DNA of 18,629 nucleotides from contig CAWJRJ010000004.1 in assembly GCA_963845245.1 (NCBI GenBank), positions 1 to 18,629 of the forward strand. The letters are read 5' to 3'. Below are positions 16 to 14,991 of the stretch, piece by piece. Both the position numbers and the translations under genes were made by a program. The first letter of the stretch is position 1, and the number at the start of each line of letters is the position of its first letter. The stretch comes from Nitrospirota bacterium (GTDB lineage: Bacteria; Nitrospirota; JACRHJ01). The notes under the pieces were generated by a model that did not search any database, was not told the origin of the DNA, and saw nothing but the letters and a program-made list of their open reading frames with translations.

Positions 16-1105
16 GCAACTAATTCTCGTATTGCTAAGGCCGACCTGTTCAAGGTGGTAGATATTATAAAGAAGAAGAAAAAATCCGACATCGTAGTCC
101 TGGCATCAGGCGACCCCAACCTCTACGGCATAACAGGATATCTCCTGAAGAATTTCGGCAAGGAAAACCTTAACATAACCCCTGCCGTAAGCTCGATGCA
201 GTGGGCCTTTGCCATGGCCAAGGAGACTTGGGAGGACGCGGAGATCGTCAGTGCGCACGGGCGGGGTGTCGATGAGGTGCTCAAGGCAACCCTGATGCGT
301 GACAAGGTCGGCGTGTTCACCGACGATAAGAACAGCCCCGACAAGCTAGCCGCCGCGCTTATATCCGCTGGTATCGGCGAGAGGAAAGTCTTTGTCTGCG
401 AGAACCTCGGCATGGATAGCCCGAAGTTGTTCGAGGGAACCTTGGAGGAGACCGTATCAAAAAGGTTCTCTCCGATGAACGTGATGATAATAAAGAAGGA
501 AAAGGCAGCCGAGCCAGCCGGAAAACCGTATTCCAAATCGCTCGGAATACCGGATTTCCAGTTCGCGCACCGGGAGGGCATGATAACGAAGGGCGAGGTA
601 CGGGCCATCGCGCTCTCCAAGCTCCGTCCAACCAGTGGGAATATCATGTGGGATATCGGCGCGGGCAGCGGATCTGTCTCGATCGAGGCTGAACCGCTTA
701 TCGCCCCGGGCAAGGTATTCGCAATAGAAAAAGACCAGAAACAGCTTGCGTTCCTCAAGAAAAACATCAGTGAAGTTTGCGGCCAACAGGGTCGAGCCGA
801 TAGGCGGGGACGCCCCGGAGGCGCTGAAACCCCTGCCGGATCCTGATATTGTATTCATCGGCGGCAGCAGCGGGCAACTCGCGGAAATACTTGACTACAT
901 AGATACAAGGCTCAAGAAGGGCGGCAGGCTTGTCGCAAATACCGTAACCCTTGAGAATTTCACAGAACTGGTCGAGTTCATGAAGGCCCATAACTATGTC
1001 TTTGAAGTTACCACGGCAAGCGTCGCCCGCTCGAAGGAGCTCTCACAGAAACATTTCATGATAGCGGCCAACCCAATAAATATCATCCTAGGCATAAAGA
1101 CTTAA
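16..1105 (+). CDS. cbiET: Fused cobalt-precorrin-7 C5-methyltransferase / cobalt-precorrin-6B C15-methyltransferase (CbiE-CbiT, CobL-like); 5'-incomplete and split by a +1 frameshift at about 769
   Basis: Frame 1 has CbiE motifs (VVLASGDPNLYGI, PAVSSMQWAFA, SAHGR, VCENLG) and CbiT motifs (MITKGEVR, WDIGAGSGSVSIE). Frame 2 from 770 continues with VKFAANRV..GDAPEAL..LPDPDIVFIGGS..GGRLVANTVTLE..AANPI. In-frame TGA at 13-15; the usual CbiE N-terminus is not visible. Confidence 0.9.
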
Positions 1106-1134
1106 AATCGTTTTCTTGATATCACCGTTTCTTT

Positions 1135-1178
1135 GCCGCCGCTATTCTTTTCGTAAAGAAAGCGGCGGTTTTGCTTTT
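1135..1178 (+). terminator. Rho-independent terminator after cbiET
   Basis: CCGCCGCT(A)TTCTTT-TCGT-AAAGAAAGCGGCGG stem-loop followed by TTTTGCTTTT. Confidence 0.75.
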
Positions 1179-1180
1179 AG

Positions 1181-1208
1181 TTGATTTTTTGCCCTCAGAT
1201 GCTATACT
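1181..1208 (+). promoter_or_regulatory. Sigma70-type promoter for cbiL
   Basis: TTGATT (1181-1186), 16-bp spacer, extended -10 TGcTATACT (1200-1208). Confidence 0.6.
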
Positions 1209-1239
1209 AACTTCCTTTTGAGATAAGCGAGGGTATTCA

Positions 1240-1947
1240 ATGGCATCTGGCAAGATATACGGTATCGGCGTCGGCCCGGGCGACCCGGGCCTGCTTACGG
1301 TAAAGGCTGTCAAAATTTTGACTGATGTCCCGGTGGTCTGTGCGCCAAAGGCGGCGGACGACGCGGGAAGCTTCGCGCTGTCCATTGTCGGGGGCTACAT
1401 AGACACCTCCCGCCAGAAGGTCATCACCCCGCTGTTCCCGATGAGCATGGACAAGGCGGTGCTGGACAAGGCGTGGTCGGACGCTGCCGAGCTTGTGGCG
1501 GCGGAACTTGCCGCAGGGCGGGATGTCGCATTCCTTACCCTTGGCGACCCGTCGCTTTACAGCACCTACTCCTATATCCTGTCAAAGATAAAAAACCTTA
1601 TCCCGGGCCTTGAGAACGAGATTATACCCGGTGTCAGCTCCATATCGCTCGCGGCGGCAAGGGCGGGGGTTGACCTCGCTCTAGGCAACGAGCGGCTTGC
1701 CATCATGCCTGTCGGGCGCGACATGGAGAGCCTCAGGGAACCGCTGTCACATTATGACACCGTCGTGTTGATGAAGGTGAACAAGAGCTTCGGGAAGCTC
1801 GTCTCGCTGCTTGAGGAGATGGGGCTTATTTCAAAGGCCGTTTATGTCACCCGGTGCGGGACGGACAAAGAAAAGATCATCCGCGACCTGAAGAGCATCG
1901 GCGATAACGAGCATGACTATCTATCGTTGGTAATAGTGAAGAAGTAA
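1240..1947 (+). CDS. cbiL: Cobalt-precorrin-2 C20-methyltransferase
   Basis: GKIYGIGVGPGDPGLLTVKAV, FPM, VAFLTLGDPSLYSTY, IPGVSS, VVLMK, YLSLVIV; GAGG SD upstream; position in a cbi cluster. Confidence 0.93.
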   Translation: MASGKIYGIGVGPGDPGLLTVKAVKILTDVPVVCAPKAADDAGSFALSIVGGYIDTSRQKVITPLFPMSMDKAVLDKAWSDAAELVAAELAAGRDVAFLTLGDPSLYSTYSYILSKIKNLIPGLENEIIPGVSSISLAAARAGVDLALGNERLAIMPVGRDMESLREPLSHYDTVVLMKVNKSFGKLVSLLEEMGLISKAVYVTRCGTDKEKIIRDLKSIGDNEHDYLSLVIVKK

Positions 1948-1989
1948 TTACAGTGTCTGGTGATGCTTATTCGAAAGGCATCAATGTGA

Positions 1990-2050
1990 GAGGTATTCAG
2001 TAAGTTGACTTTGTACGGGTATCATCGTTCAAAGGCTACTTACTGACCTC
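1990..2050. repeat. 61-nt imperfect inverted repeat (long hairpin) in the cbiL-cbiF spacer
   Basis: GAGG/CCTC, TCAGTAAGT/ACTTACTGA, CTTTG/CAAAG and ACG/CGT arms pair in register. Confidence 0.75.
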
Positions 2051-2103
2051 GAATCTTTTTGATGACTTGAGAATAAATTTCACCAGCCAAAAGGGAGTTT
2101 ACT

Positions 2104-2857
2104 TTGAGTAATATATTTTTCCTCGGCGCTGGCCCGGGCGACCCGGACCTTATGACGATCAAGGCCAGAAAAGTTCTGGAACAGGCCGACCTGGTAATCT
2201 ATGCCGGGTCGCTGGTGAACCCGGAGCTTCTGAAGTTCGCCAAGCCCGGCGCGGAGATAAAGAACAGCGCCACGATGGAGCTTGACGAGATGGTCGCGGC
2301 GATGGCCAGCTTTGCAAAGGCGGGCAAGGTCGTCGCACGGCTTCATACCGGCGAGCCGAGCCTGTACGGCGCAATCGCGGAGCAGATGGAGGAGCTGGAC
2401 AAGGCGGGGCTCGATTACGAGGTCGTCCCCGGCGTTAGTTCCGCATTCGCCGCCGCCGCCGCGCTCAAGTGCGAGCTGACCCTGCCGGAGGTGAACCAGA
2501 CGGTCATCTTCACGCGACTTGAGGGCCGCACCGGCGTCCCTAAGAAGGAGTCGCTTTCCTCCCTTGCATCACACGAGACGACGATGGTGATATTCCTGTC
2601 CATCGGCAACATAGACAAGGTGGTCGAGGAGCTTCTGACGGGCTTCCCGAATACGACACCGGCGGCTGTGGTGTACAAGGCGTCCTGGCCCGAGGAGAAG
2701 GTCGTGCGCGGGACACTCGCGGATATCGCGGACAAGGTGAAGGCGGAGGGCATCTCAAAGACCGCGCTGATATTCGTCGGCGAGGCAATTGGGCGGCAGA
2801 TGAAGGCGTACTCGAAAGCTTTATGATAAAGACTTTAAGCATGAGTACAGGAAATAA
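2104..2857 (+). CDS. cbiF: Cobalt-precorrin-4 C11-methyltransferase. As written the ORF stops at 2826, but the conserved C-terminus continues in the +1 frame to 2857
   Basis: FLGAGPGDPDLMTIKA, IYAGSLVNP, VARLHTGEPSLYGAIAEQM, ELTLPEVNQTVIFTR, YKASWPEE; TTG start with AAGGGAG SD. Removing one A at 2815-2817 gives SKLYDKDFKHEYRK*. Confidence 0.93.
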
Positions 2858-2891
2858 ATAAAACGATGGAAAATTCCCGAAAAAAACAAGA

Positions 2892-3193
2892 ATGCAAAGG
2901 ACGGAAGTGTTGCCCACATTGTCGAATGAGCTAGATTTAGCATCTATACTGACAACAGGCATCCAATAAGCGATTTAGTTAACTCAACGAGATGGGGCAA
3001 TACTGGAAAGTTGAATAGATACTTTGGGTAAATAATTTGTTGCAACATTGGTGGTAAATCTTGAAAGCGAAGACAGCAAATAATTCGGATTTATAAAGCA
3101 TGTCGCGCGCGGGGTTTTAGTTAGGCGCTTTAATCGGCTCTTGTTATAGGGTGGTTAGTGAGCAAATTCAAAAAAGAAAAAGGCAGCAGATGA
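2892..3193 (+). pseudogene. Frameshifted, diverged paralog of the 3265-3567 Zn-ribbon membrane gene
   Basis: Read across indels it gives MQRTEV-CPHC..ELDLASIL.NRHPISDLVNSTRW...IIC-QH(C)...FGFI...WLVSKFKKEKGSR*, collinear with MPKTEVCPHCLKTIDLTPILRNQSPIRALFVPAKW...IICPHC...FWFI. Confidence 0.7.
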
Positions 3194-3265
3194 ATAAACT
3201 CGCCCGTCATCGCCATAACCAAAAACGGCTCTTTGCTTGCTGGTAAGATAGGTAAGGCTTGCTAA
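3190..3265 (+). pseudogene. Duplicated 5' stub of cbiG (MNKLA[+C]VIAITKNGSLLAGKIGKAC*)
   Basis: 3209-3251 is 41/43 identical to 3586-3628 of cbiG, and both differences are synonymous (ACC/ACG, GCT/GCC). One extra C at 3203-3205. Its TAA overlaps the next ATG (TAATG). Confidence 0.9.
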
Positions 3266-3567
3266 TGCCAAAGACTGAAGTTTGTCCACATTGTTTAAAG
3301 ACGATAGACCTGACACCGATATTGCGCAACCAGAGCCCGATACGCGCTTTATTTGTCCCTGCAAAATGGCTAAAATTATTTAGGTTGGTAGAGAATTATG
3401 ACCAGATAATCTGCCCGCATTGCCAGCAGACATATCAAACCAATAAAGCCAGGTTCTTCTGGTTTATCACGCCCAAGAACATGGCGCTTATTATATTGAT
3501 AGTCCCAACGGTCTATATTGCATTGAAAGTTCTTCAGTGGATAAAAGAAGTTGGAGTTCTATTTTAA
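3265..3567 (+). CDS. Small hypothetical membrane protein with two CPHC (CxxC) motifs, putative Zn ribbon plus a C-terminal TM helix
   Basis: 100-aa ORF from ATG 3265; CPHC...CPHC; hydrophobic ALIILIVPTVYIAL; stop abuts the cbiG ATG; AT-rich relative to the flanks. Confidence 0.7.
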   Translation: MPKTEVCPHCLKTIDLTPILRNQSPIRALFVPAKWLKLFRLVENYDQIICPHCQQTYQTNKARFFWFITPKNMALIILIVPTVYIALKVLQWIKEVGVLF

Positions 3568-4620
3568 ATGAGAAAGTTGGCAGTAATCGCCATAACGAAA
3601 AACGGCTCTTTGCTTGCCGGTAAGATAGCCAGATCATACAAGTCTGCGGACGTATATCTGCCGAAGGAGTTCGCCTTGCCGGGTTGCAAGGTTATCAATG
3701 GTGGTTTGGCGGAAGAGGTCGGGCGGATATTCGGGAAGTACAAGGCCTTTGCCTTTATAACGGCAACCGGTATTGCCGTCAGGATGATCGCGCCACATCT
3801 GAAGGACAAGAAGACCGACCCGGCGGTGGTGGTGATGGATGAGAAGGGGGAGTACGTTATAAGCCTTCTCTCCGGCCACATAGGCGGGGCGAACGAACTT
3901 GCAAAAAAGATTGCTAAGTTGATCGGCGGGCAGGCGGTGATAACCACCGCGTCGGACGTGCAGGGTTCAATCGCGGTGGATACGCTGGCCGGGATGCTCG
4001 ACTGCGCGATTGAGGACTTCGATGCCGCGAAGCGCGTTACCGCCGCAATTGTGAACGGCGGCAAGGTTGCCGCGTATTCGCACATCGATATCGCGGGCAG
4101 GCTGGACAGCATAAACGCGGACATCGAGTTTTACAAGACTGCTGAGGATGCGCTGAAGGCGAAGGCGGACGCGGCGATATTAATCACGCCGTACCTGTTG
4201 GAAATAAAGAAGCGTAAGCCGGTCGCGGTACTTCGCCCGAGAGTTCTTGTGGTCGGGATGGGTTGCAACCGTGGCACGTCCGAGGAAGAGATAGAGCGCC
4301 TCTTTATTGATACTCTGGACGATGCGCGACTCTCTCCGATGTCGGTTAAGTTGGTTACATCGGTTGAGGACAAGAAGGACGAGGTAGGGCTTTTGAGCTT
4401 CGCGAAGAAACGGGGCCTGAAGATAAAATTTTTCACAAGGGAGAGGCTCCTTAAGGGCAAGACGCCTTCGGGGGCATCCGAGACTGTATTCAGAAACTTG
4501 GGGGTATACGGGGTATGCGAACCGGCAGCCCTTCTTGCGGCGGGGGCAAAGAAACTCCTTGTTGCAAAGAAGAAGACAAAGAACGCGACGATAGCAATCG
4601 CAGAGGCTCGCTCAAAGTAA
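3568..4620 (+). CDS. cbiG: Cobalt-precorrin-5A hydrolase
   Basis: ATGIAVRMIAP, DKKTDPAVVVMDE, ISLLSGHIGGANELA, VITTASD, VGMGCNRG, GVCEPAAL. Confidence 0.95.
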   Translation: MRKLAVIAITKNGSLLAGKIARSYKSADVYLPKEFALPGCKVINGGLAEEVGRIFGKYKAFAFITATGIAVRMIAPHLKDKKTDPAVVVMDEKGEYVISLLSGHIGGANELAKKIAKLIGGQAVITTASDVQGSIAVDTLAGMLDCAIEDFDAAKRVTAAIVNGGKVAAYSHIDIAGRLDSINADIEFYKTAEDALKAKADAAILITPYLLEIKKRKPVAVLRPRVLVVGMGCNRGTSEEEIERLFIDTLDDARLSPMSVKLVTSVEDKKDEVGLLSFAKKRGLKIKFFTRERLLKGKTPSGASETVFRNLGVYGVCEPAALLAAGAKKLLVAKKKTKNATIAIAEARSK

Positions 4621-5351
4621 TAGGCATCGGGCCTGGTTCTGCGGACTACATGACGCCGAGGGCCAAGTCAGCGATAGAGTCCAGCGATACCATCGTCGGC
4701 TATATAACATACATCAAACTTATTCCTGAGCTGCTTGAGGGCAAAGAGGTGGTATCCACCGGTATGAAGGCCGAGGCCGAACGCTGCAAGGAGGCGGTAC
4801 GGCTTGCGGCCGAAGGGCGGAGAGTCGCGTTCATATCGAGCGGAGACCCTGGCGTATATGGCATGGCGGGGCTTGCGCTTGAGGTGATAAAGGACGCATA
4901 CCCGGTCTACATACCTTTCGACTTCGAGGTCATTCCTGGACTTCCGGCGGTATGTTCGTCCGCGGCATCGCTTGGCGCGCCCCTTATGCATGACTTCGCG
5001 GTGATATCGCTTTCAGACCTGCTGACACCCTGGGAACTTATTAAAAAGCGCCTCCACGCGGCGGCATCGGCCGACTTCGTGATATCGCTTTATAATCCTC
5101 GGAGCAAGGGCAGGCCGGGCCTGCTTGAGGAGGCGCGCGGCATCATAATGGAGCACAGGCCGGGTGAAACCCCGGTGGGCATCGTGAAGGATTCGCGCCG
5201 CGACGAGGAAGAGGTGATCCTGACGACGCTTGCCGAACTGCCGTTTGACAGGGTGGATATGACGACGATGGTAATCATCGGAAACTCCAGCAGTTACCGC
5301 TTTATGAACTATATCGTCACCCCGCGCGGATACAAGGGGAAGAGGTTCTAG
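4602..5351 (+). CDS. cbiH: Cobalt-precorrin-3 C17-methyltransferase; start uncertain (frame open from ATG 4515, homology begins at about 4605)
   Basis: GSLKVIGIGPG, IVGYITYI, ISSGDPGVYGMAG, GAPLMHDFAVISLSDLLTPW, ADFVISLYNPRS, VDMTTMVIIGNS, VTPRGY. Confidence 0.92.
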   Translation, partial: RGSLKVIGIGPGSADYMTPRAKSAIESSDTIVGYITYIKLIPELLEGKEVVSTGMKAEAERCKEAVRLAAEGRRVAFISSGDPGVYGMAGLALEVIKDAYPVYIPFDFEVIPGLPAVCSSAASLGAPLMHDFAVISLSDLLTPWELIKKRLHAAASADFVISLYNPRSKGRPGLLEEARGIIMEHRPGETPVGIVKDSRRDEEEVILTTLAELPFDRVDMTTMVIIGNSSSYRFMNYIVTPRGYKGKRF

Positions 5352-5362
5352 AGACTTTTAGC

Positions 5363-5391
5363 TTTACAACAGGGGCTTTAATACCTATAAT
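5363..5391 (+). promoter_or_regulatory. Sigma70-type promoter
   Basis: TTTACA-17 bp-TATAAT. Confidence 0.7.
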
Positions 5392-5433
5392 CCCGTGGTA
5401 CGGATAAATAAACAAACAAAGGAGGATTGAATC

Positions 5434-5547
5434 ATGCGTATGAGAAACAGGGAGATAGCCAGGAGAAGGCACAGAAGGGACCAGGCCCTAAAGCTTCGTA
5501 AGCGCGAGGCGATAGAGGCGGCAAAGAACACAGTCAAGAAGAAGTAA
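5434..5547 (+). CDS. 37-aa Arg/Lys-rich small protein (MRMRNREIARRRHRRDQALKLRKREAIEAAKNTVKKK), resembling DUF6800-type peptides; not in the ORF track
   Basis: Strong SD AAAGGAGG at 5418-5425, ATG 5434, own promoter, TAATG overlap with the next gene. Confidence 0.8.
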   Translation: MRMRNREIARRRHRRDQALKLRKREAIEAAKNTVKKK

Positions 5548-6074
5548 TGCCCGAGGGCGCGGCATTCTGGTTGACCGGCCTGCCAGGCTCCGGCAAGACA
5601 ACGCTGGCGCTGGCGGCAAAGAAAGAGGTGCCGGGCTTAGTCATCCTGCACATGGACGAGATGCGCAGGGTTGTCACGCCCGTGCCGACATATAGCGGCG
5701 AAGAGAGAGACCATCTGTACATGGCCCTTGTCTTCGCCGCTATTGTTTTGACAAGAGAAGGCCACGATGTGGTGGTCGACGCCACGGCAAACCTCCGCAG
5801 GTGGCGCGATGGGGCCAGGATGCGGATAAAGGATTTCCACGAGATATATATCAAATGCCCTATCGATTTGTGCCGGGACAGGGAGAAGACGCGGGTAGAC
5901 GAGTTTGCACCGCGCGATGTATACAAGAAGGGCGAGGCTGGCTGGCCGGTGCCGGGCGTGAACGTGCCGTATGAGGATCCTCTCTCCCCTGAGCTTACAA
6001 TAGACTGCGGCAGGTTGACACTAGAGGAGGCCGCATCCGTGCTGGTGGGCTACATAAAGAAAGTCAAACATTAA
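5547..6074 (+). CDS. Adenylyl-sulfate (APS) kinase-like P-loop kinase
   Basis: FWLTGLPGSGKTT Walker A, EIYIKCPIDLCRDRE, VYKK, VPGVNVPYEDPLSPEL; diverged from canonical CysC at LDGDNVR. Confidence 0.8.
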   Translation: MPEGAAFWLTGLPGSGKTTLALAAKKEVPGLVILHMDEMRRVVTPVPTYSGEERDHLYMALVFAAIVLTREGHDVVVDATANLRRWRDGARMRIKDFHEIYIKCPIDLCRDREKTRVDEFAPRDVYKKGEAGWPVPGVNVPYEDPLSPELTIDCGRLTLEEAASVLVGYIKKVKH

Positions 6075-6081
6075 TTCCCCC

Positions 6082-6110
6082 TTGCCCTTTCTCCTCAAGC
6101 TTGATAGAAT
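6082..6110 (+). promoter_or_regulatory. Sigma70-type promoter placing +1 at or near the envC ATG
   Basis: TTGCCC-17 bp-TAGAAT with extended TG; ATG at 6118. Confidence 0.55.
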
Positions 6111-6117
6111 CCACTGC

Positions 6118-7302
6118 ATGTTATCGAGAATGCTGATAATTTCCGCCACCCTGCTTTTCATGCTCACTGTTACCATTCCCGCGTACGCCGAAGAAAAACC
6201 CTCAAAGGCCAAGACCCAGAACGAACTCCAGAAGATCCAGGAACAATTGAAGGGCGTGAAGAAGAAGGAGAAGGAGGCCGCAAAGCAGGAGCGCTCCGTC
6301 CTGACCGACCTTGAGAATATGGACCAGAACCTTGAACAAAAACGCGCCGAGGTCAGAAAACTGGAGGGCAAACTGAACGGGGTCAGCCGGGAGATAGAGG
6401 GCTCGTCGTCCGAGATGGAGAAATACGGTTCCAAGGTGAAGACGAAGGAGGCCGACCTGGCCAACAGGATAAGGGCGATGTACAAGACCGAGCGCGCGGG
6501 GGGGGCGTGGGTACTCCTGGTCTCAGGGGACTATGGCTCACTCCTAAGACGGTACAAATACCTGTCCATAATGTCAAGGCGCGACAAGGCTATGATGGAG
6601 GCCTACAAAGGCGACCTTGAAAAAGTGGCCGATTACAACGATAAGCTAAAAGACCAGCGCAAGGAATACGATAAGATAAAAACCGCACGCGACGCCGAGG
6701 CTGCAAAGGTGCAGGCGCAGGAGGCTGAAAAGAAGAAGCTGCTCGCCTCGATCAGGGAGAAAAAGGGCCTTTACGAAGCGATGGCCCACGACCTCGAGGA
6801 GTCTGGCCGCAGGATGCGCGACCTGCTGAACCGCCTTGAGGTGGAGAAAAAGGCAAAGCCCAGCCCGGGCAAGCCCGCTGCACCGGCTGTAGTTGTCCCT
6901 GCCCTGACTGCCGGGCTCGACTGGCCGGTATCCGGGAAGATAATAAGCTTTTTTGGCAAGCAGAAACACCCGGAATATGATACCTATATCTTCAAGAACG
7001 GCGTGGAGATACAGGCCCCGGCCGGTTCCGATGTCAGGGCGATCGACGGGGCGGTTGTCGCCTTTGCGAGCTTCTTCAAGGGGCTAGGCCAGGTGGCGAT
7101 TTTAAGGCATGGCGGCGATATGTACACAGTGTATGCGCACCTGGCTGATGTAAGGGTAAAGGCAGGCGACAAGGTCGGAAAGGGGCAGGTCATAGCGTCC
7201 CTTGCCGATACAGGCTCGTCGACAGGACCGACACTATATTTTGAGGTCAGGAAGGGGGCCGAACCCCAGGACCCGGTAAAGTGGCTCAAGAGGAAAAAAT
7301 AA
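6118..7302 (+). CDS. envC: Murein hydrolase activator EnvC-like protein (signal peptide, long coiled coil, degenerate M23/LytM domain)
   Basis: Hydrophobic N-terminus ending in AYA; long coiled coil; WPVSGKIISFFG, KNGVEI (HxxxD lost), YAHL, LYFEVR, DPVKWL; typical envC-ctpA synteny. Confidence 0.85.
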   Translation: MLSRMLIISATLLFMLTVTIPAYAEEKPSKAKTQNELQKIQEQLKGVKKKEKEAAKQERSVLTDLENMDQNLEQKRAEVRKLEGKLNGVSREIEGSSSEMEKYGSKVKTKEADLANRIRAMYKTERAGGAWVLLVSGDYGSLLRRYKYLSIMSRRDKAMMEAYKGDLEKVADYNDKLKDQRKEYDKIKTARDAEAAKVQAQEAEKKKLLASIREKKGLYEAMAHDLEESGRRMRDLLNRLEVEKKAKPSPGKPAAPAVVVPALTAGLDWPVSGKIISFFGKQKHPEYDTYIFKNGVEIQAPAGSDVRAIDGAVVAFASFFKGLGQVAILRHGGDMYTVYAHLADVRVKAGDKVGKGQVIASLADTGSSTGPTLYFEVRKGAEPQDPVKWLKRKK

Positions 7303-7310
7303 AAAAAACC

Positions 7311-7339
7311 TTCATATAAAACGAATTATAAGGTATAAT
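7311..7339 (+). promoter_or_regulatory. Sigma70-type promoter for ctpA
   Basis: TTCATA-17 bp-TATAAT with an upstream A tract. Confidence 0.55.
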
Positions 7340-7354
7340 TTAAAGGCGTGGATA

Positions 7355-7387
7355 GACAGGCCCCCGGCTTTTCGGGGGCGTCCTTTT
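7355..7387 (+). terminator. GC-rich hairpin with a short U tract (envC terminator or ctpA leader structure)
   Basis: GAC(AG)GCCCCCG-GCTTTT-CGGGGGCGTC-CTTTT. Confidence 0.5.
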
Positions 7388-7442
7388 GGCAGGCAACGCA
7401 CTGTTTTGAAGTTCCAGCCTGGTTGAAAACGAGGAGGGGTAG

Positions 7443-8831
7443 ATGAGTTTCAAAGAAAGAGCAAGAAAAAGCGCACCATGGATACTCGTGGTCATATTCG
7501 TCATGGGTGTGCTAATGGGGACCGGCATGGCGCGTTACAGCCAGGCCGACAACGAGACTTACGACAAGCTTAAGATTTTCTCTGAAGTCCTGTCATTGGT
7601 CCAGAAAAACTATGTGGAGGAGGTAAGCTCCAAGGACCTTATATACGGGGCCATCAAGGGAATGCTTAATAACCTCGACCCGCACTCCTCGTTTATGACC
7701 CCTGAGATGTACAAAGAGATGCAGGTGGACACAAAGGGCGAGTTTGGCGGGCTTGGCATCCAGATCGGCGTTAAGGACAGGATGCTTACTGTCATAGCGC
7801 CCATAGAGGACACGCCGGCATACAAGGCGGGTATCAAGGCGGGGGATAAAATAATAAAGATCGACGGCGCCGCCACAAAGGACATGACGCTGACCGAGGC
7901 AGTGGAAAAGATGAGGGGCCCCAAGGGTACATCCGTCGTTATCAGCGTGCTTCGCGATGACTTCGCCCAGCCGAAGGACTTCAAGATCACCAGGGATGTA
8001 ATAAAGATAAAGAGCGTGAAGTCCAAGATACTGGACAGCGACATCGGTTATGTAAGGATAAGCCAGTTCCAGGAAAAGACGGACGAAGACCTGCAAAAAG
8101 CGCTCAAAGAGTTCGACGAGAAGGGCGTTAAGTCCATAATCGTAGACCTCAGGAACGACCCGGGCGGTCTCCTCAATATGGCCGTAGACGTGAGTGGCGA
8201 GTTCCTGCCCTCAGGCAAGCTGGTTGTGTATATAAAGGGTAGGAACGGCGAAAAAGACGAGTTCTTTACAAACAACTCGGCTCCGCATACTACGCAGCCC
8301 ATCGTTGTACTGGTCAACGAAGGGTCGGCTTCTGCATCGGAGATCGTAGCCGGATGTCTACAGGATTGGGGGCGCGCAGTAATTATGGGCACCCAGACCT
8401 TTGGCAAGGGTTCGGTCCAGACTGTAATAGGCCTCTCGGATGGTTCCGGCCTCAGGTTGACTACGGCCAAATACTATACCCCGAAGGACCGTTCCATACA
8501 GAATACCGGCATAAAGCCTGACATAGAGGTTAAACAGCCGGAACTCACAACAAGCAAGAAGATGGAAGCGGGTAACCCGCATATGCTCCGCGAGAAGGAT
8601 CTCGAAAGACACCTCGGTAACGAGACAGTAAAGCCTGAAAAGAATGAGGAGCCGGTTAAGGATGGCGGGACTGCTCCCAAGGAGCCCAAGATTAACGAAA
8701 CTCCGGAAAATACCGTACCGCCTGAGCCGATTGAGAGAAGCGAAGAGGACGACTATCAGCTTCAGCGTGCGAAAGACCTCCTGAAGGGGCTTACAATACT
8801 AAAAGGTATGCCCGCCGCCCAGCATAAATAG
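7443..8831 (+). CDS. ctpA: Carboxyl-terminal processing protease, S41A family with PDZ domain
   Basis: N-terminal TM/signal; LDPHS, GEFGGLGI, DLRNDPGGLL, SASASEIVAG, TFGKGSVQ, LTTAKYYTP, GIKPDI, DYQL; SD GAGGAGG. Confidence 0.95.
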   Translation: MSFKERARKSAPWILVVIFVMGVLMGTGMARYSQADNETYDKLKIFSEVLSLVQKNYVEEVSSKDLIYGAIKGMLNNLDPHSSFMTPEMYKEMQVDTKGEFGGLGIQIGVKDRMLTVIAPIEDTPAYKAGIKAGDKIIKIDGAATKDMTLTEAVEKMRGPKGTSVVISVLRDDFAQPKDFKITRDVIKIKSVKSKILDSDIGYVRISQFQEKTDEDLQKALKEFDEKGVKSIIVDLRNDPGGLLNMAVDVSGEFLPSGKLVVYIKGRNGEKDEFFTNNSAPHTTQPIVVLVNEGSASASEIVAGCLQDWGRAVIMGTQTFGKGSVQTVIGLSDGSGLRLTTAKYYTPKDRSIQNTGIKPDIEVKQPELTTSKKMEAGNPHMLREKDLERHLGNETVKPEKNEEPVKDGGTAPKEPKINETPENTVPPEPIERSEEDDYQLQRAKDLLKGLTILKGMPAAQHK

Positions 8832-8855
8832 GTTAGGGTGAAATATAGTCTGGAC

Positions 8856-8886
8856 AAGGGGCAAGCATTGCTTGCCCCTTTCTTTT
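8856..8886 (+). terminator. Rho-independent terminator after ctpA
   Basis: AAGGGGCAAGCA-T-TGCTTGCCCCTT perfect inverted repeat followed by TCTTTT. Confidence 0.85.
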
Positions 8887-8940
8887 GGCTGTCGTAAAAC
8901 TTCTTTTTTATTTTTTGCTATACTTGACTAAAATTTCCCC

Positions 8941-8968
8941 TTGATTTTTATTTTTTCTGTGGTATATT
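8941..8968 (+). promoter_or_regulatory. Sigma70-type groESL promoter
   Basis: TTGATT-16 bp-TATATT with extended TG, directly upstream of CIRCE. Confidence 0.65.
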
Positions 8969-8977
8969 TCATTGTCG

Positions 8978-9004
8978 TTAGCACTCACTGTGAATGAGTG
9001 CTAA
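8978..9004 (+). promoter_or_regulatory. CIRCE element (HrcA operator)
   Basis: Perfect TTAGCACTC-N9-GAGTGCTAA upstream of groES. Confidence 0.97.
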
Positions 9005-9043
9005 TAAAAGTTTATACAAACCAAACATGAAAGGAGAACAAAT

Positions 9044-9304
9044 ATGGGATTCAAGCCGTTGGGAGACAGGGTGTTTATCAAGTTTTTAGAGGAGATGGAG
9101 AAGACAGCAGGAGGCCTTTATATCCCGGACGCAGCCAAGGAAAAGCCCCAAAGGGGCAAGGTTGAGGCCGTCGGCAAGGATGTCGAGGAAGTCAAGGTCG
9201 GCGATGTCGTCCTTTTCGACAAATACTCCGGAAGCAAGATAAACGTAGACAATGAGGATTACCTCATCGTGAAGGAAGAAGAAGTCCTGGGAATAATCTC
9301 GTAG
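9044..9304 (+). CDS. groES: Co-chaperonin GroES (short 86-aa form)
   Basis: [50 protein letters not shown]. Confidence 0.97.
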
Positions 9305-9334
9305 TTTAAAAATTATATTAAAGGAGGATGATAA

Positions 9335-10981
<1,647 letters not shown>

Positions 10982-10994
10982 AATATCCTTTCTG

Positions 10995-11024
10995 AGGTCC
11001 CCCCTAACAAGGGGGGCCTTTTTT
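10995..11024 (+). terminator. Rho-independent terminator of groESL
   Basis: AGGTCCCCCCT-AACA-AGGGGGGCCT followed by a T tract. Confidence 0.85.
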
Positions 11025-11039
11025 CTAAAAGGTTATTAT

Positions 11040-11324
11040 ATGGAACCAAAGAAACAACCAAGGGTCCTGGTATTTTCCACGCCGACATGTGGGTACTGCT
11101 CCAAGGCCAAGAGGTTCCTTAAGGCAAACGGTATAAAGTTCAGGGACATAGATATATCGAAGGACCCGGATGCAGCGAAGGATGCCAAAAGGATAAGCGG
11201 CGGGACATCCGTGCCGGTGATAATGGTAGGTAGCACCGTTGTGATGGGCTTTGACAAGTCAAAGCTTGAGAGGCTTCTTGGGTTAAAGAAAAAACCTGCG
11301 ACGGAAGATGAGGATGCCGGCTGA
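11040..11324 (+). CDS. Glutaredoxin-like protein (NrdH/YruB type)
   Basis: VFSTPTCGYC, GIKF.DIDI, SVPVI, GFD; ATG 11040 (the ORF-track extension overlaps groEL and its terminator). Confidence 0.9.
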   Translation: MEPKKQPRVLVFSTPTCGYCSKAKRFLKANGIKFRDIDISKDPDAAKDAKRISGGTSVPVIMVGSTVVMGFDKSKLERLLGLKKKPATEDEDAG

Positions 11325-11350
11325 GCCGACAAACAGGAATTATTTTTTGT

Positions 11351-11379
11351 TTGACAAGAATAACAATTTAACTTAAACT
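11351..11379 (+). promoter_or_regulatory. Near-consensus sigma70 promoter overlapped by a TTGTT-N10-AACAA palindrome
   Basis: TTGACA-17 bp-TAAACT. Confidence 0.7.
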
Positions 11380-11424
11380 TGCTTTAAATTATGTTACCAA
11401 TGTTAACTTTAGATAACAAACAAT

Positions 11425-11447
11425 AAGGGCCCTTAAAGGGCTTTTTT
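11425..11447 (+). terminator. Terminator-like hairpin about 40-60 nt downstream of that promoter and 10 nt before the ferredoxin start
   Basis: AAGGGCCCT-TAA-AGGGC followed by TTTTTT. Confidence 0.65.
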
Positions 11448-11457
11448 CGTATTCAAG

Positions 11458-11622
11458 TTGTATAAGATAACAGATATATGTGACGGGTGTGGGGTTTGCG
11501 CTTCTTCCTGTCCGCTTGACTTGATTGTAAAGGCAGGGGATGCATACGAGATATGCATCGGTTGCAACGTCTGTGGCTCATGCTCCGCCCTGTGTCCCAG
11601 GGGAGCAATTAAACGTATATGA
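11458..11622 (+). CDS. 2[4Fe-4S] ferredoxin, 54 aa (MYKITDICDGCGVCASSCPLDLIVKAGDAYEICIGCNVCGSCSALCPRGAIKRI); not in the ORF track
   Basis: Two CxxCxxCxxxCP motifs, YKITD start and CP.GAI end typical of clostridial-type ferredoxins; TTG start, TGA 11620-11622. Confidence 0.88.
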   Translation: MYKITDICDGCGVCASSCPLDLIVKAGDAYEICIGCNVCGSCSALCPRGAIKRI

Positions 11623-11638
11623 AAGGGAGGGGTTTGTC

Positions 11639-11965
11639 ATGGGTGAGAAGTCTTTAAAGGTTACAAGCGGGACTTGGGACGGTGAGGTAATGCAGGCACA
11701 GGGGCTGGTCCTGGTGGATTTTTGGGCGGTATGGTGCGGGCCCTGCCAGATGGTCGGACCGGTGGTTGAGGAGCTTGCCGGTGATTATGAGGGCAAGCTG
11801 AAAGTCTGCAAGCTCAATACGGACGAGAACCCCGACATAGCGAGCAAATACAGGATAATGGGGATACCGACTTTGATGTTTTTCAAAAACGGCGCAGCGG
11901 TCGACCAGGTGGTGGGTGCAGTTCCCAAGGCGCAGTTGAAATCAAAGATAGATTCTCTTCTATAA
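11639..11965 (+). CDS. trxA: Thioredoxin
   Basis: VLVDFWAVWCGPC, KLNTDENP, IMGIPTL.FFKNG, VGA.PK; SD GGGAGG before ATG 11639. Confidence 0.96.
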   Translation: MGEKSLKVTSGTWDGEVMQAQGLVLVDFWAVWCGPCQMVGPVVEELAGDYEGKLKVCKLNTDENPDIASKYRIMGIPTLMFFKNGAAVDQVVGAVPKAQLKSKIDSLL

Positions 11966-12057
11966 TAGTAGCATACTTGAAAGAGAACCCCGTCCGATAG
12001 TAGCTTTAGCTAAAAAGAAGCCTTTTTAACCTAGGCACTACGTGAAAAAGGTGTTTC

Positions 12058-12717
12058 ATGAAAACGGTCGCCCAGAAGATTAAGGATGCTATAAACAGGA
12101 AGGGCTTTTCTACTGTAAAGGAATGCGCTCAGGCACTCGGTCTGCCGTATGAACTGTTAAGGAAGGTCGTTGGGGAAGACCATATACCAAAGGACGAGCA
12201 GCTCCTTGTATATGCCAGAAAACTGGGTATCGAGCCCAGAGACCTCCTTTTTACCGCGTATCACCAGAAAGCCCCGGCCGAATTCAAGGAATACTTTGAA
12301 AACAAGGTGATCAGGGAAACGCCGGTCGCACAGAACAGGATACCCTTGATTAATTTTGTCCAGGCAGGCGGCTTCGGCTCAGGCACTGATCAGTATCCCT
12401 ACCCCGGCGTGGCCGAGGAATATGTCGAGACGGACCTCCAGGGCAGGTACCTTTTCTCCATGCGTGTGAAAGGCGACTCGATGGAGCCGCTGTTTTTCGA
12501 AGACGAGATTATTATAATAGACCCGGAGATCCAGCCTCAACCAGGCGACTATGTGATAATCAAGAAGGACGATGAAGAAGAGGCTACATTCAAGCAGCTG
12601 AAAAAATATCGGGGCGTCTGGGTAATGCACCCTCTGAACCCGCGGTTTGAAGACATAGAGATGACCAAGGACATGCGGATAGTAGGCAAGGTCATAAGAA
12701 AACAAAGAGACTTTTAG
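12058..12717 (+). CDS. XRE-like HTH plus S24 peptidase (CI/LexA-like) transcriptional regulator
   Basis: N-terminal HTH-like region; IPLINFVQAG (Ala-Gly cleavage site), RVKGDSMEP (Ser), EATFKQL (Lys), HPLNPRF, IVGKV. Confidence 0.88.
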   Translation: MKTVAQKIKDAINRKGFSTVKECAQALGLPYELLRKVVGEDHIPKDEQLLVYARKLGIEPRDLLFTAYHQKAPAEFKEYFENKVIRETPVAQNRIPLINFVQAGGFGSGTDQYPYPGVAEEYVETDLQGRYLFSMRVKGDSMEPLFFEDEIIIIDPEIQPQPGDYVIIKKDDEEEATFKQLKKYRGVWVMHPLNPRFEDIEMTKDMRIVGKVIRKQRDF

Positions 12718-12721
12718 TAAC

Positions 12722-12745
12722 AGCCGCCTTCGGGCGGCTTTTTTT
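12722..12745 (+). terminator. Rho-independent terminator
   Basis: AGCCGCC-TTCG-GGCGGCT followed by a T tract. Confidence 0.9.
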
Positions 12746-12781
12746 ATGTTATAATTGTTTTAAATACAAAGGGAGGGACCA

Positions 12782-13282
12782 ATGCGAAAAATGATGATCC
12801 TCTGTCTTATGTTGCTTCTGCCGGTTGCTTCCTTTGCCGCTGAAGGTTACGCGGTGCCCGATCTTTCAAAGGCCACTGTTATTCTTGATGAGAACCAGTA
12901 TATAGGCAACACTACCCCTCCCACCGAGGTCAATATCAAAAGCTACAAAAAACCTGACGGAAACATGGTCAGGGTATACAGCATAGGCGGCCGCATTTTC
13001 CGATACGACGTGGATACCAACGGCGCCTTGCCTTATGAATACCGGCTTATAGATACGACTGGCAACGGCGTCTTTGATACCAAAGAGCCCATGGTAGGGC
13101 AGATGATAGTCAAGGAAAAGGGGATGAAGTATTATATTGATCTGGGCACTGAGCCAGGCAAGGAATACCGGTACAGTTACGAGAATGCCGAAAAGCCAAG
13201 TATCAGAGAGGAGAAAGAACTCCTGATGGGATATCAGATTTTCATCCCTCAGTGGGTTCTGGTGAGGTTTAATCAGCCTTAA
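12782..13282 (+). CDS. Secreted or periplasmic hypothetical protein
   Basis: SD GGGAGG; signal peptide MRKMMILCLMLLLPVASFA; extended -10 TGtTATAAT at 12747-12755. Confidence 0.8.
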   Translation: MRKMMILCLMLLLPVASFAAEGYAVPDLSKATVILDENQYIGNTTPPTEVNIKSYKKPDGNMVRVYSIGGRIFRYDVDTNGALPYEYRLIDTTGNGVFDTKEPMVGQMIVKEKGMKYYIDLGTEPGKEYRYSYENAEKPSIREEKELLMGYQIFIPQWVLVRFNQP

Positions 13283-13296
13283 CGATACAACGAATC

Positions 13297-13331
13297 AAGG
13301 GCCGGCCGAAAAGCCGGCCCTTATCTTTTTT
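13297..13331. terminator. Terminator between convergent genes (possibly bidirectional)
   Basis: AAGGGCCGGC-CGAAAA-GCCGGCCCTT followed by ATCTTTTTT. Confidence 0.8.
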
Positions 13332-13341
13332 CAAATACAAA

Positions 13342-14991
13342 TCAGCCCAGTATAGCCTTCAAGTCTTCTTCCGGTGTCGTGATCGGCTTTATAGCAAACT
13401 TCTCAACCAGCACGTCCAGCACAGCCGGAGTTACGAACTTCGGCAGGCTCGGCCCAAGCCTTATGTCCTTTATTCCCAGATACAGGAGCGTCAGGAGTAT
13501 GCTTACGGCCTTCTGCTCATACCATGAAAGCACCATTGAGAGCGGTAGGTCATTGACTCCGCAGTTGAATGCCTTAGAGAGCGCCACCGCGATCTGTATC
13601 GCCGAATAGGCGTCGTTGCACTGGCCGATGTCGAGCAGCCTCGGTATCCCGCCGATGTCGCCGAACTCAAGCTTGTTGAAGCGGTACTTGCCGCATGCCA
13701 GCGTAAGGATCACGCAGTCATTCGGCACAGCTTTCGCGAAATCGGTGTAGTAGTTCCTGCCGGACTTTGCACCGTCGCATCCGCCCACCAGAAAGAAGTG
13801 ACGTATAGCCTTCGCCTTCACCGCGTCTATCACCTTGTCCGCAACGCCCATCACCGTATTCCTCGCGAAGCCAGTCAGTATAGTCTTGTCCTCGCCGTCG
13901 GCGGCGAAGCCCGGAGCGGCAAGCGCCGCCTCTATGACAGGCGTGAAGTCCGTATTTGACACATGCGTTACGCCAGGCCATGCCACAAGGCCAGAAGTGA
14001 AGATGCGGCCTTTGTAACCATCCTTGGGCTGCTGGATGCAGTTGGTCGTCATGAGTATCGCGCCCGGGAACGCGTCGAACTCCTTTACCTGGTCCTGCCA
14101 TGCGCCGCCGTAGTTGCCGGCGAGGTGGCTGTATTTTTTAAGCTCGGGGTATCCGTGGGCGGGCAACATCTCGCCGTGGGTATACACGTTTATGCCCTTG
14201 CCCTCGGTCTGCTTCAGGAGTTCTTCGAGGTCCTTCAGGTCGTGGCCCGAAACCACTATCGCCTTACCCTTTAGCGGGTTGATCCGCACCGGTGTCGGGA
14301 CCGGGTGTCCGTATTCACCCGTGTTGCCCGCGTCCAGCAGCTCCATGGCCTTGAGGTTCAATTCGCCCGCCTTCAGGCACATGCCAAGAAGGTCGCCAAC
14401 TGCGGGTGACTCGACATTCAGGAAGTCAAGCGCCTCGTGTATGCCCTGATAGAGCCCGTCGTCATGCTGCCCCATTATGTATGCGTGGTCGGCGTATGCA
14501 GCCACGCCCTTTATCCCGTAGGTCAGGAGTTCCTGCAGGCCCGCGACGTCCTCGCCTAGCCTGGCCTTGCGCCCAACTATCGACACGGCTTCACCCTGGG
14601 CGAGCAGCCCGGCCATATCGGATGCCGGAGTATACGTGGCTGCGCCGTTTAGTGTCTCAGGTGTCTGGCCGGCATTTTTGCATGCATCTTCGTATAGACC
14701 TCGGGCCCTGTCGCGTATCGTAGCCGCCCGGCCTATCAGGCCCTTTATTCTTGCATCGTCGAAGTTGACATTAGTAAGGGTGGAGAAAACGGCCTCCGTC
14801 GTGAAGACGTCCACATCCTTATCCCTGACGCCCATCTTTCCAGCCCTGCTTGCATATGCCGCAACGCCTTTTACTGCATGGAGCAGCAGGTCCTGGAGCA
14901 CGCTCGTCGTCTCCTCTTTGCCGCACACCCCTTTGACCGTGCACCCCGCCCCCTTTGCCGACTGTTCGCACTGATAACAGAACATTCCCAT
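13342..14991 (-). CDS. hcp: Hybrid cluster (prismane) protein / hydroxylamine reductase, class I-type Cys spacing
   Basis: MFCYQCEQ with Cx2Cx8Cx5C, SGHDL, YTHGEMLPAH, TTNC, LVGGCDG, LACGKYRF, GQCNDAY, SWYEQKA; SD GAGGAG on the minus strand. Confidence 0.98.
   Translation of the reverse strand: MGMFCYQCEQSAKGAGCTVKGVCGKEETTSVLQDLLLHAVKGVAAYASRAGKMGVRDKDVDVFTTEAVFSTLTNVNFDDARIKGLIGRAATIRDRARGLYEDACKNAGQTPETLNGAATYTPASDMAGLLAQGEAVSIVGRKARLGEDVAGLQELLTYGIKGVAAYADHAYIMGQHDDGLYQGIHEALDFLNVESPAVGDLLGMCLKAGELNLKAMELLDAGNTGEYGHPVPTPVRINPLKGKAIVVSGHDLKDLEELLKQTEGKGINVYTHGEMLPAHGYPELKKYSHLAGNYGGAWQDQVKEFDAFPGAILMTTNCIQQPKDGYKGRIFTSGLVAWPGVTHVSNTDFTPVIEAALAAPGFAADGEDKTILTGFARNTVMGVADKVIDAVKAKAIRHFFLVGGCDGAKSGRNYYTDFAKAVPNDCVILTLACGKYRFNKLEFGDIGGIPRLLDIGQCNDAYSAIQIAVALSKAFNCGVNDLPLSMVLSWYEQKAVSILLTLLYLGIKDIRLGPSLPKFVTPAVLDVLVEKFAIKPITTPEEDLKAILG

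Follow-up and report, generated by a model that had tools for sequence, protein, structure and literature searches.

The DNA analysed here (the window) is the whole 18,629-nt contig C4 of the Nitrospirota metagenome bin G000 (90% complete, 5.2% contamination). Genes of the anaerobic cobalamin pathway, four for tetrapyrrole methylases plus cbiG (Pfam), occupy positions 55-5351. Two of these genes, cbiF (2104-2826) and cbiG (3568-4620), are separated by 741 nt of DNA whose GC content is low (0.38-0.44, compared with 0.57-0.67 in the flanks). This DNA consists of a decayed gene (A), a relic of the start of cbiG, and an intact gene (B) of the same family as A. In the explanation that we favour, at a probability of roughly 0.55, B and six cbiG codons entered a chromosome carrying A by a homologous join on one side and an illegitimate one on the other, and thereby displaced A together with the former gene start. 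Throughout the text, C denotes contigs, G genomes, L loci or metagenome contigs, X sequencing runs and P proteins. The parts of the region are as follows.

2104-2826, plus strand: cbiF (precorrin-4 methylase type; Pfam TP_methylase, E 4e-53; aligned with C28 and L020)
2858-2891, plus strand: spacer ahead of A; its final 13 nt, together with the first third of A, can be aligned with the L020 spacer and gene start
2892-3193, plus strand: copy A, a decayed gene of a family with two CPxC motifs (zinc ribbon) and a transmembrane (TM) segment; family matches are spread over three frames
3190-3265, plus strand: the whole relic of the cbiG start, 76 nt, first 24 codons of cbiG
3190-3208, plus strand: relic segment I, an ancestral-type cbiG start (ATGAATAAACTCGCC...) with a 1-nt insertion found only in C4; its first 15 nt equal those of G006, G001 and G008
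3209-3265, plus strand: relic segment II, cbiG codons 7-24, with 4/45 differences to cbiG 3586-3630; its final TAA shares an A with the ATG of B
3265-3567, plus strand: gene B, intact, 100 aa; the protein has two CPxC knuckles, a helical region as an insertion, and a TM helix at its C terminus
3361-3585, plus strand: tract nearly identical in C4 and C28 (4 differences in 225 nt), which stops exactly at cbiG nt 18/19
3568-3585, plus strand: recoded cbiG start of the MRKLAV type, linked to B in every B-carrying sequence
3568-4620, plus strand: cbiG, whole (Pfam CbiG_N, CbiG_mid and CbiG_C)

The stop codon of A (TGA, 3191-3193) overlaps the relic ATG at 3190, the pentamer TAATG (3263-3267) couples the relic frame to the start of B at 3265, and the stop codon of B (TAA, 3565-3567) abuts the cbiG ATG at 3568. 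The initial annotation of this DNA had described the same order, coordinates and coupled or abutting junctions (ATGA, TAATG, TAA-ATG), all of which proved correct to the base, and its unit period of about 373-378 bp agrees with the 372-378 bp that we obtained (the cbiG repeat spacings are 377 and 372). No promoter- or terminator-like sites were found on the plus strand in 1900-3900, which suggests that transcription of the operon probably continues through the insert. No Rfam families were found in the window.

The relic is a close copy of cbiG over only part of its length. Positions 3209-3251 and 3586-3628 are identical at 41 of 43 nt, and both differences are synonymous and at third positions (ACC/ACG and GCT/GCC), as had been noted in the first reading. 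By BLAST the match is 43/46 (E 1e-15), so that B lies between direct repeats at 3206-3251 and 3583-3628; relic and gene agree without mismatch over 20 nt at most. That reading had missed two features. The first 18 nt of the C4 relic are far more diverged from the gene (seven mismatches and an indel) than the next 45 nt (four mismatches; Fisher p = 0.009 for a boundary set post hoc), and the 1-nt insertion, present in C4 only, puts the relic ATG out of frame with its cbiG-like part. The sequence ATGAATAAACTCGCC that opens the relic is identical over 15 nt to the cbiG starts of G006, G001 and G008. The four cbiG genes that are linked to B all start with the recoded version (MRKLAV, MRALAV or MKTLAV). 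These 18 nt are the same in C4 and C28, differ at 2/18 positions in L019 and at 4/18 in L020, and the ancestral type is 8-10/18 different. Because the relic has the ancestral start and B always comes with its own six recoded codons, B and the replacement start would have been gained together; the linkage thereby supports the earlier proposal of a joint gain by recombination within the first codons of cbiG, here the first 24. From cbiG codon 7 onward the sequence is conserved; its first 11 nt (ATCGCCATAAC) are identical in four of the six other genomes compared, G002 and G010 having one mismatch each. Derivation of the recoded start from the cmk start beside the family member in G006 was rejected, since the two starts have different numbers of codons ahead of the shared TCGCCATA.

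Two samples of relatives were used: a haplotype sample of six genus-level contigs (C4, C28, L019, L020, X1 and X3), the genus having one species representative, and a family survey of 12 genomes, nine of which have cbiG and seven of which, besides the bin, have a readable cbiF-cbiG junction. Zero, one and two units were all found, as the initial annotation had anticipated for the spacers of relatives. Two units are present in C4, C28 and L019, and the junction between relic and B (...TGC TAATG CC...) is the same in 3/3. C28, a second contig of the bin, is colinear with C4 over 14.7 kb, with an identity of about 90% (window 37-14715 against G000:C28:3-14949); its cbiF is followed by 600 nt of low-GC DNA that is unrelated, then by the relic, B (93% identical in amino acids) and cbiG. 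L019, a metagenome contig from another assembly that is 86% identical, begins in the tail of A and continues with relic, B and cbiG. L020 has a single unit (cbiF, a 36-nt spacer, B and cbiG) and the relic is absent. In two further single-unit sequences, X1 record 1 (7260 nt) and X3 record 7 (409 nt), cbiF is joined straight to B, and in X3 the cbiF stop TAA overlaps the ATG of B as TAATG, the same pentamer as at the relic end. Zero units were found in G006, G001, G010 and G002 (four of the seven readable genomes, from four related genera), where the cbiF stop overlaps the cbiG start. These natural intermediates show how an accessory gene can come to lie ahead of an operon gene without breaking it.

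These contigs also bear on the possibility that the layout is an assembly chimera of two strain haplotypes, which had been offered as the alternative in the initial annotation. The bin is a mix of two related populations, as it contains two approximately 90% identical versions of one region, and one of the pair C4 and C28 is probably a co-binned relative. This composition, the 5.2% contamination and the lack of matching source-sample reads (best 0.08) would suit a chimera. The junction between relic and B recurs, however, in C28 and in the independently assembled L019, which has the tail of A upstream of its relic; relic and gene share no exact match beyond 20 nt; and the sequence after the relic does not run on into cbiG as a graph jump would. 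We therefore regard a chimera as very improbable.

Compared with one another, the relics in C4, C28 and L019 show differences at 5/45 positions; from the cbiG of C4 they are 4-5/45 away, and those of C28 and L019 are each 8/45 from their own cbiG. The relics thus have a single origin and, not being closest to their own cbiG, show no sign of conversion; on these comparisons relic and cbiG do not evolve in concert. The identical junction in all three two-unit contigs likewise argues for one event and not for repeated targeting. A function of the relic as a translated leader for B found no support in a conserved ORF, as the relic is open with a TTG start in L019, shifted from its ATG in C4 and startless in C28. 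About 6/10 of the changes among the three relics, read by eye, are at third positions, which is not significant.

Copy A contains no plus-strand open reading frame (ORF) of at least 40 aa. Proteins of the family match it colinearly but in three frames, the best being the distant member P0005 with two high-scoring segment pairs (HSPs; E 1.7e-6). Shuffled versions of A reached the real best HSP in 0/2000 cases for P0005, 1/2000 for P0003 and 26/2000 for B itself, and the family hidden Markov model (HMM) scored 10.1, 5.9 and 5.7 on the three forward frames of A, with a maximum of 7.5 over 1800 shuffled frames. Global alignment of A and B gave 185/302 identical nucleotides (61%) and a score of 29, against a shuffle maximum of -7. 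The claims that A is broken, strongly diverged from B and nevertheless related to it under frame-aware comparison thus held. A keeps the residues P-I-S-D-L and F-G-F-I-K of distant members, which are absent from all B alleles, and the B alleles (C4, C28, L019, L020, P0002 and P0003) have the derived residues S-P-x-R-[AG]-L and F-F-W in common. Because A has outgroup residues where the B alleles share derived ones, A is, as judged from these alignments, a decayed member of the family of B and not a recent copy of B. The best match of A to P0005, set beside a relic that is just 4-5/45 from cbiG, indicates that the A/B split is much older than the relic and that A and B were already divergent when joined. 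The pairing of a nearly identical relic with very different genes, puzzling at first sight, is resolved in this way: the relic is young, and A and B were old alleles when they came together.

An in-situ tandem duplication of the small gene and the first 72 nt of cbiG, followed by decay of the upstream copy and by gene conversion that kept the relic similar to cbiG, is quite improbable on this evidence. Tandem duplication is the commonest source of such layouts, and A and B are indeed homologous, of equal length (302/303 nt), in the same order and at a constant period. Yet A and B are 61% identical where the relic core and cbiG are 91-95% identical, A shares states with distant family members that are found in no B allele, and the relic opens with 18 nt of ancestral type (11/18 identical to the adjacent gene) that are not a copy of that gene. 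Conversion is at odds with the C28 and L019 relics, which are not closest to their own cbiG. The simple form, duplication and decay, was rejected on the unequal divergence of the parts of the unit and the outgroup states of A, in agreement with the initial annotation, which had already argued that it does not fit.

B itself has dN/dS (the ratio of nonsynonymous to synonymous divergence) of 0.24-0.48 (four alleles), values that place it under purifying selection. Over the same six pairs, its synonymous divergence (dS) is 0.12-0.39, compared with 0.51-0.72 for the first 570 nt of cbiG, and by this measure B is younger than its flanks. The alleles are mosaic: the 3' third of the L019 allele is shared with L020 and not with C4. 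Positions 3466-3566, the TM-helix part, fall into two allele classes, C4 with C28 and L019 with L020, that differ at about a third of positions, and the 5' two thirds are similar. The nearly identical tract of C4 and C28 (3361-3585) is followed by 12 differences in 49 nt (Fisher p = 3e-7).

A and B can be placed in one slot, because the L020 spacer and B start have their counterparts in the spacer and gene start of A. The alignment of C4 with L020 spans cbiF through 2982, and the spacer and A start match the single-unit allele at 75/106 positions (blastn, E 1e-8). We envisage that the cbiF-cbiG junction of this genus holds a small accessory gene for a membrane-anchored zinc-ribbon protein, and that haplotypes carried strongly divergent versions of it at the same place, an A type with the ancestral cbiG start and a B type with the recoded start. 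The event would date to an ancestor of C4, C28 and L019, in which an A-carrying chromosome received a donor segment running from the TAA-ATG before B, through B, and into the first codons of the donor cbiG. On the right, homologous exchange would have taken place within the conserved sequence from cbiG codon 7 onward (ATCGCCATAAC...), and on the left the segment would have been joined illegitimately to codon 24 of the resident cbiG. One possible route is homology-facilitated illegitimate recombination (HFIR) with a template switch; another is single-crossover integration of a circularised donor fragment, which would yield the duplication of codons 7-24. Both routes would give the same product, and the sequences are equally compatible with either. 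The outcome would be a whole cbiG, with the resident A and the first 24 resident cbiG codons shifted upstream as dead relics. A would have decayed afterwards and, in C28, would later have been replaced by other DNA.

Several points weigh against this explanation. Classical HFIR on one linear chromosome does not itself duplicate the target, so that a circle or a template switch must be assumed. An A-only haplotype, with an intact A followed by a cbiG of the MNKLA type, is predicted and was not seen in the six genus-level contigs. C28, with unrelated DNA in place of A, needs a second replacement event. The tract shared by C4 and C28 ends at the same cbiG nt 18/19 as the recoded start, a coincidence that a fixed recombination site explains more simply. 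Public sequencing runs searched for the words of the window gave a best share of 0.08, so that the comparison is with contigs of relatives and not with raw reads of the source. Finally, a genome-wide look for local direct repeats revealed three further low-GC inserts bracketed by copies of a neighbour's end, and these hint at something more regular than one-off accidents:

G000:C17:277783-278776 (L088): insert at the 3' end of uvrB; the last 66 nt including the stop are repeated 928 nt downstream
G000:C18:122039-123299 (L089): terminator-like insert; a 57-nt hairpin is repeated (96.6% identical) around a low-GC gene for a 352-aa protein
G000:C19:27982-30024 (L090): tRNA-Val insert; 44 nt of the 3' end are repeated 2 kb downstream (97.7% identical)

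The uvrB repeat is 86% identical, with mostly synonymous changes, and flanks a low-GC gene for a 245-aa protein with a signal peptide that is bounded by palindromic hairpins. The cargoes on C17 and C18 are homologous secreted-protein genes (39% identical, E 1e-43). The low-GC tRNA-Val insert (2 kb) carries a gene for a 494-aa membrane protein and no integrase. No empty sites were found for these three inserts.

Such inserts speak for a site-specific or otherwise regular integration of cassettes by a recombinase acting in trans, in which the cbiG codon-7 stretch would serve as a core similar to an attachment (att) site and the cassette would bring its own gene start. The geometry here is that of attL-insert-attR with a regenerated gene end and direct repeats flanking the insert; two independent boundaries lie at cbiG nt 18/19; two of the three other inserts have homologous cargo; and in G241 a member of the B family lies with its neighbour inside a 59-nt direct repeat. 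The initial annotation had gone in this direction, suggesting att-site integration and a regular stacking of variable cassettes, and neither suggestion was borne out. No recombinase or integrase was detected by Pfam among the 17 large ORFs of the 18.6-kb window, in keeping with the annotation's own remark that none was in view, and the insert contains B alone; nor is there an integrase inside the other repeat-flanked inserts. Inverted repeats are absent from 2700-3800, and, of the features of integron cassettes, the locus has neither an attC-type inverted-repeat site (2700-3800) nor an integrase (window ORFs). One relic per locus and one junction sequence shared by the three two-unit contigs point to a single event, and the repeats differ between sites, so that there is no common att. 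G004 and G008 carry other genes at the junction together with an ancestral-type start and no relic was noticed there, although no formal relic search was made. The conserved 11-mer, moreover, is also the first good homology available to ordinary recombination. Regular integration is unlikely in our judgement.

Comparison with known systems places the locus, on the displacement explanation, as a recombination footprint of a known kind and not as a new mobile element. Integrative elements such as tRNA-gene islands, or e14 at icd, regenerate the end of their target gene. They leave direct repeats of the target end and a replacement end with synonymous differences, as is the case here, and the tRNA-Val insert provides an example in this genome. 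In contrast to these elements, the cbiF-cbiG region has no integrase and no arm or inverted-repeat sites, and its insert amounts to one gene of 303 nt; since a 5' end is targeted, the translation start context must come with the insert as well.

HFIR, the process invoked above, produces insertions, usually with loss of recipient DNA. Its combination of one homologous anchor with one illegitimate join puts foreign DNA beside a conserved gene, as we propose for B. The difference is that 54-72 nt of the recipient are duplicated here, for which a circular intermediate or a template switch is needed. In transformable bacteria HFIR is reportedly the subject of work by de Vries and Wackernagel (2002), Prudhomme et al. 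(2002) and Meier and Wackernagel (2003). It is reportedly also treated for such bacteria in PMC3240628.

A closer parallel may be found in the orphan arrays of Rhs, contact-dependent inhibition (CDI) and type VI secretion system (T6SS) loci. The arrays of the first two are said to have been studied by Jackson et al. (2009) and Poole et al. (2011). Displacement by HFIR has been proposed for T6SS effector-immunity arrays and Rhs loci, according to Kirchberger et al. (2017; PMC5361080). In that account, an incoming module with a piece of a conserved neighbour recombines through that homology, and the resident variable gene is pushed aside with a truncated conserved piece, no integrase being known, and the same can be said of the window. 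A truncated copy of the neighbour (the relic, 3190-3265) lies between modules A and B; the modules are divergent and not recent duplicates (A and B 61% identical, with the dS of B below that of its flanks); and module number varies, with two in three contigs, one in three and none in four genera. Other features of orphan arrays are lacking. The site has no toxin gene, being surrounded by cbi genes alone in the window, and the displaced A is decayed in three frames and not kept as a working orphan. The arrangement is also mirrored, in that the duplicated piece is the 5' end of a housekeeping gene lying downstream, with the old module moved upstream inside a biosynthetic operon, and one displacement alone is seen.

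If gene-start relics are common, they could serve, at little cost, to locate recombination hot spots and to tell in which direction genes flow in uncultured lineages, the old gene start left behind being a datable scar. A literature search found nothing on gene-start relics in housekeeping operons, which is not proof of their absence from print.

In an AF2 model of B (predicted local distance difference test, pLDDT, 72) the two CPxC hairpins form a zinc ribbon; the model also has an inserted helical region and, at residues 70-99, a TM helix. Foldseek of this model against the PDB gave no match at E 0.001 or better, B reached no Pfam family above cut-off, and matches to PHROGs were weak and all of unknown function (best E 1.1e-4). 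Two CPxC knuckles are also found in CpXC (PF14353), a family without known function, and in generic zinc ribbons, to which B adds the C-terminal TM helix; the gathering score of CpXC was reached by two of 12 family members. A LITAF-like (PF10601) assignment, suggested by an Atlas lead with a score of 0.94, was rejected: B has no match to PF10601 at E <=0.01, two of 12 members have weak matches, and the LITAF-like hydrophobic stretch sits between the knuckles, whereas the TM helix of B comes after the second knuckle. The family is rare, with three relatives in 5.8 billion clustered proteins, nine representatives at E <=0.001 in 1.84 billion, and 10 loci in 8/401 genomes of the phylum. Most members sit between unrelated housekeeping genes; in G006 the flanks are EPSP (5-enolpyruvylshikimate-3-phosphate) synthase and cytidylate kinase, and no direct repeat was found around this homologue. 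In G241 (L095 1422-2420) the family member and a YcxB-like gene lie between 59-nt direct repeats that are 93% identical.

One member is located differently. In G048:C7 (L094/L098) a 99-aa family member begins 2 nt downstream of an Rhs gene (PF03527, PF05593) whose tip, about 150 residues, is glycine-rich and hydrophobic. The gene order is Rhs, B-family gene, orphan Rhs fragment, IS30-like transposase and Tlde1-domain gene. By its position the family member would occupy the immunity-gene slot of the Rhs locus, a lead that comes from one of the 10 loci. A search of the literature for CpXC proteins as immunity proteins returned nothing, which again does not prove that none is in print. Should the link of the cargo family to Rhs immunity be true, orphan-immunity arrays would extend beyond toxin loci. 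A and B could then be orphan immunity-type genes against a membrane-acting Rhs toxin, the stack an immunity array in a housekeeping operon, and the module of B with its six recoded cbiG codons, like the other single-gene low-GC inserts of this genome that lie between 44-75-nt copies of a neighbour's end, the product of a regular, integrase-independent cassette route, with loop-out between the flanking repeats and re-entry into related genomes by single crossover. We consider this combined reading rather unlikely.

Additional observations were made at the cbiF-cbiG junctions of relatives and in searches for the family. G004 (L013 100-880) and G008 (L018 1830-3160) have a different low-GC gene at the junction, in inserts of 610 and 1150 nt; the encoded homologous signal-peptide proteins have a hydrophobic tail, are 42-49% identical and belong to no Pfam family. 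The cbiF-cbiG spacer of G007 (L011 1350-1495) is a 145-nt palindromic element with arms CATTCTGAGC and GCTCAGAATG. The 600 bp upstream of the relic in C28 ('Y') were considered as a decayed family member and rejected (tblastn E 0.004-0.005; HMM score 3.1, below the shuffle maximum of 4.8). A 38-aa ORF with a TM segment directly follows cbiF in C28, and in G006 (L004 1712-1891, minus strand) a 59-aa hydrophobic ORF overlaps the start of the family member; such ORFs beside family genes or cbiF may form two-gene modules. A closer family alignment (A2) found two metagenome loci and none in the genome contigs searched. A search of genome contigs with P0005 gave 66 loci that were discarded, all of them matching just its unrelated N-terminal extension (residues 1-83).

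The cbiF gene of C4 is itself altered. A 1-nt insertion near 2815-2817 deprives the protein of its 11 C-terminal residues (..YDKDFKHEYRK), a stretch conserved in C28, L020 and other genera of the family. The extra A (TCGAAAGC, compared with TCGAAGC in C28 and TCAAAGC in L020) puts a TGA in frame; the ancestral stop is at 2855-2857, the cbiF of relatives ending in ...HEYRK. The shortening is either a true truncation or a homopolymer error. Ahead of cbiF, the low-GC spacer contains a 110-nt repeat (1967-2076) that recurs at 95% identity on contigs C17 and C14. At the corresponding position in C28 it aligns with either strand and is therefore palindromic, resembling a miniature inverted-repeat transposable element (MITE).

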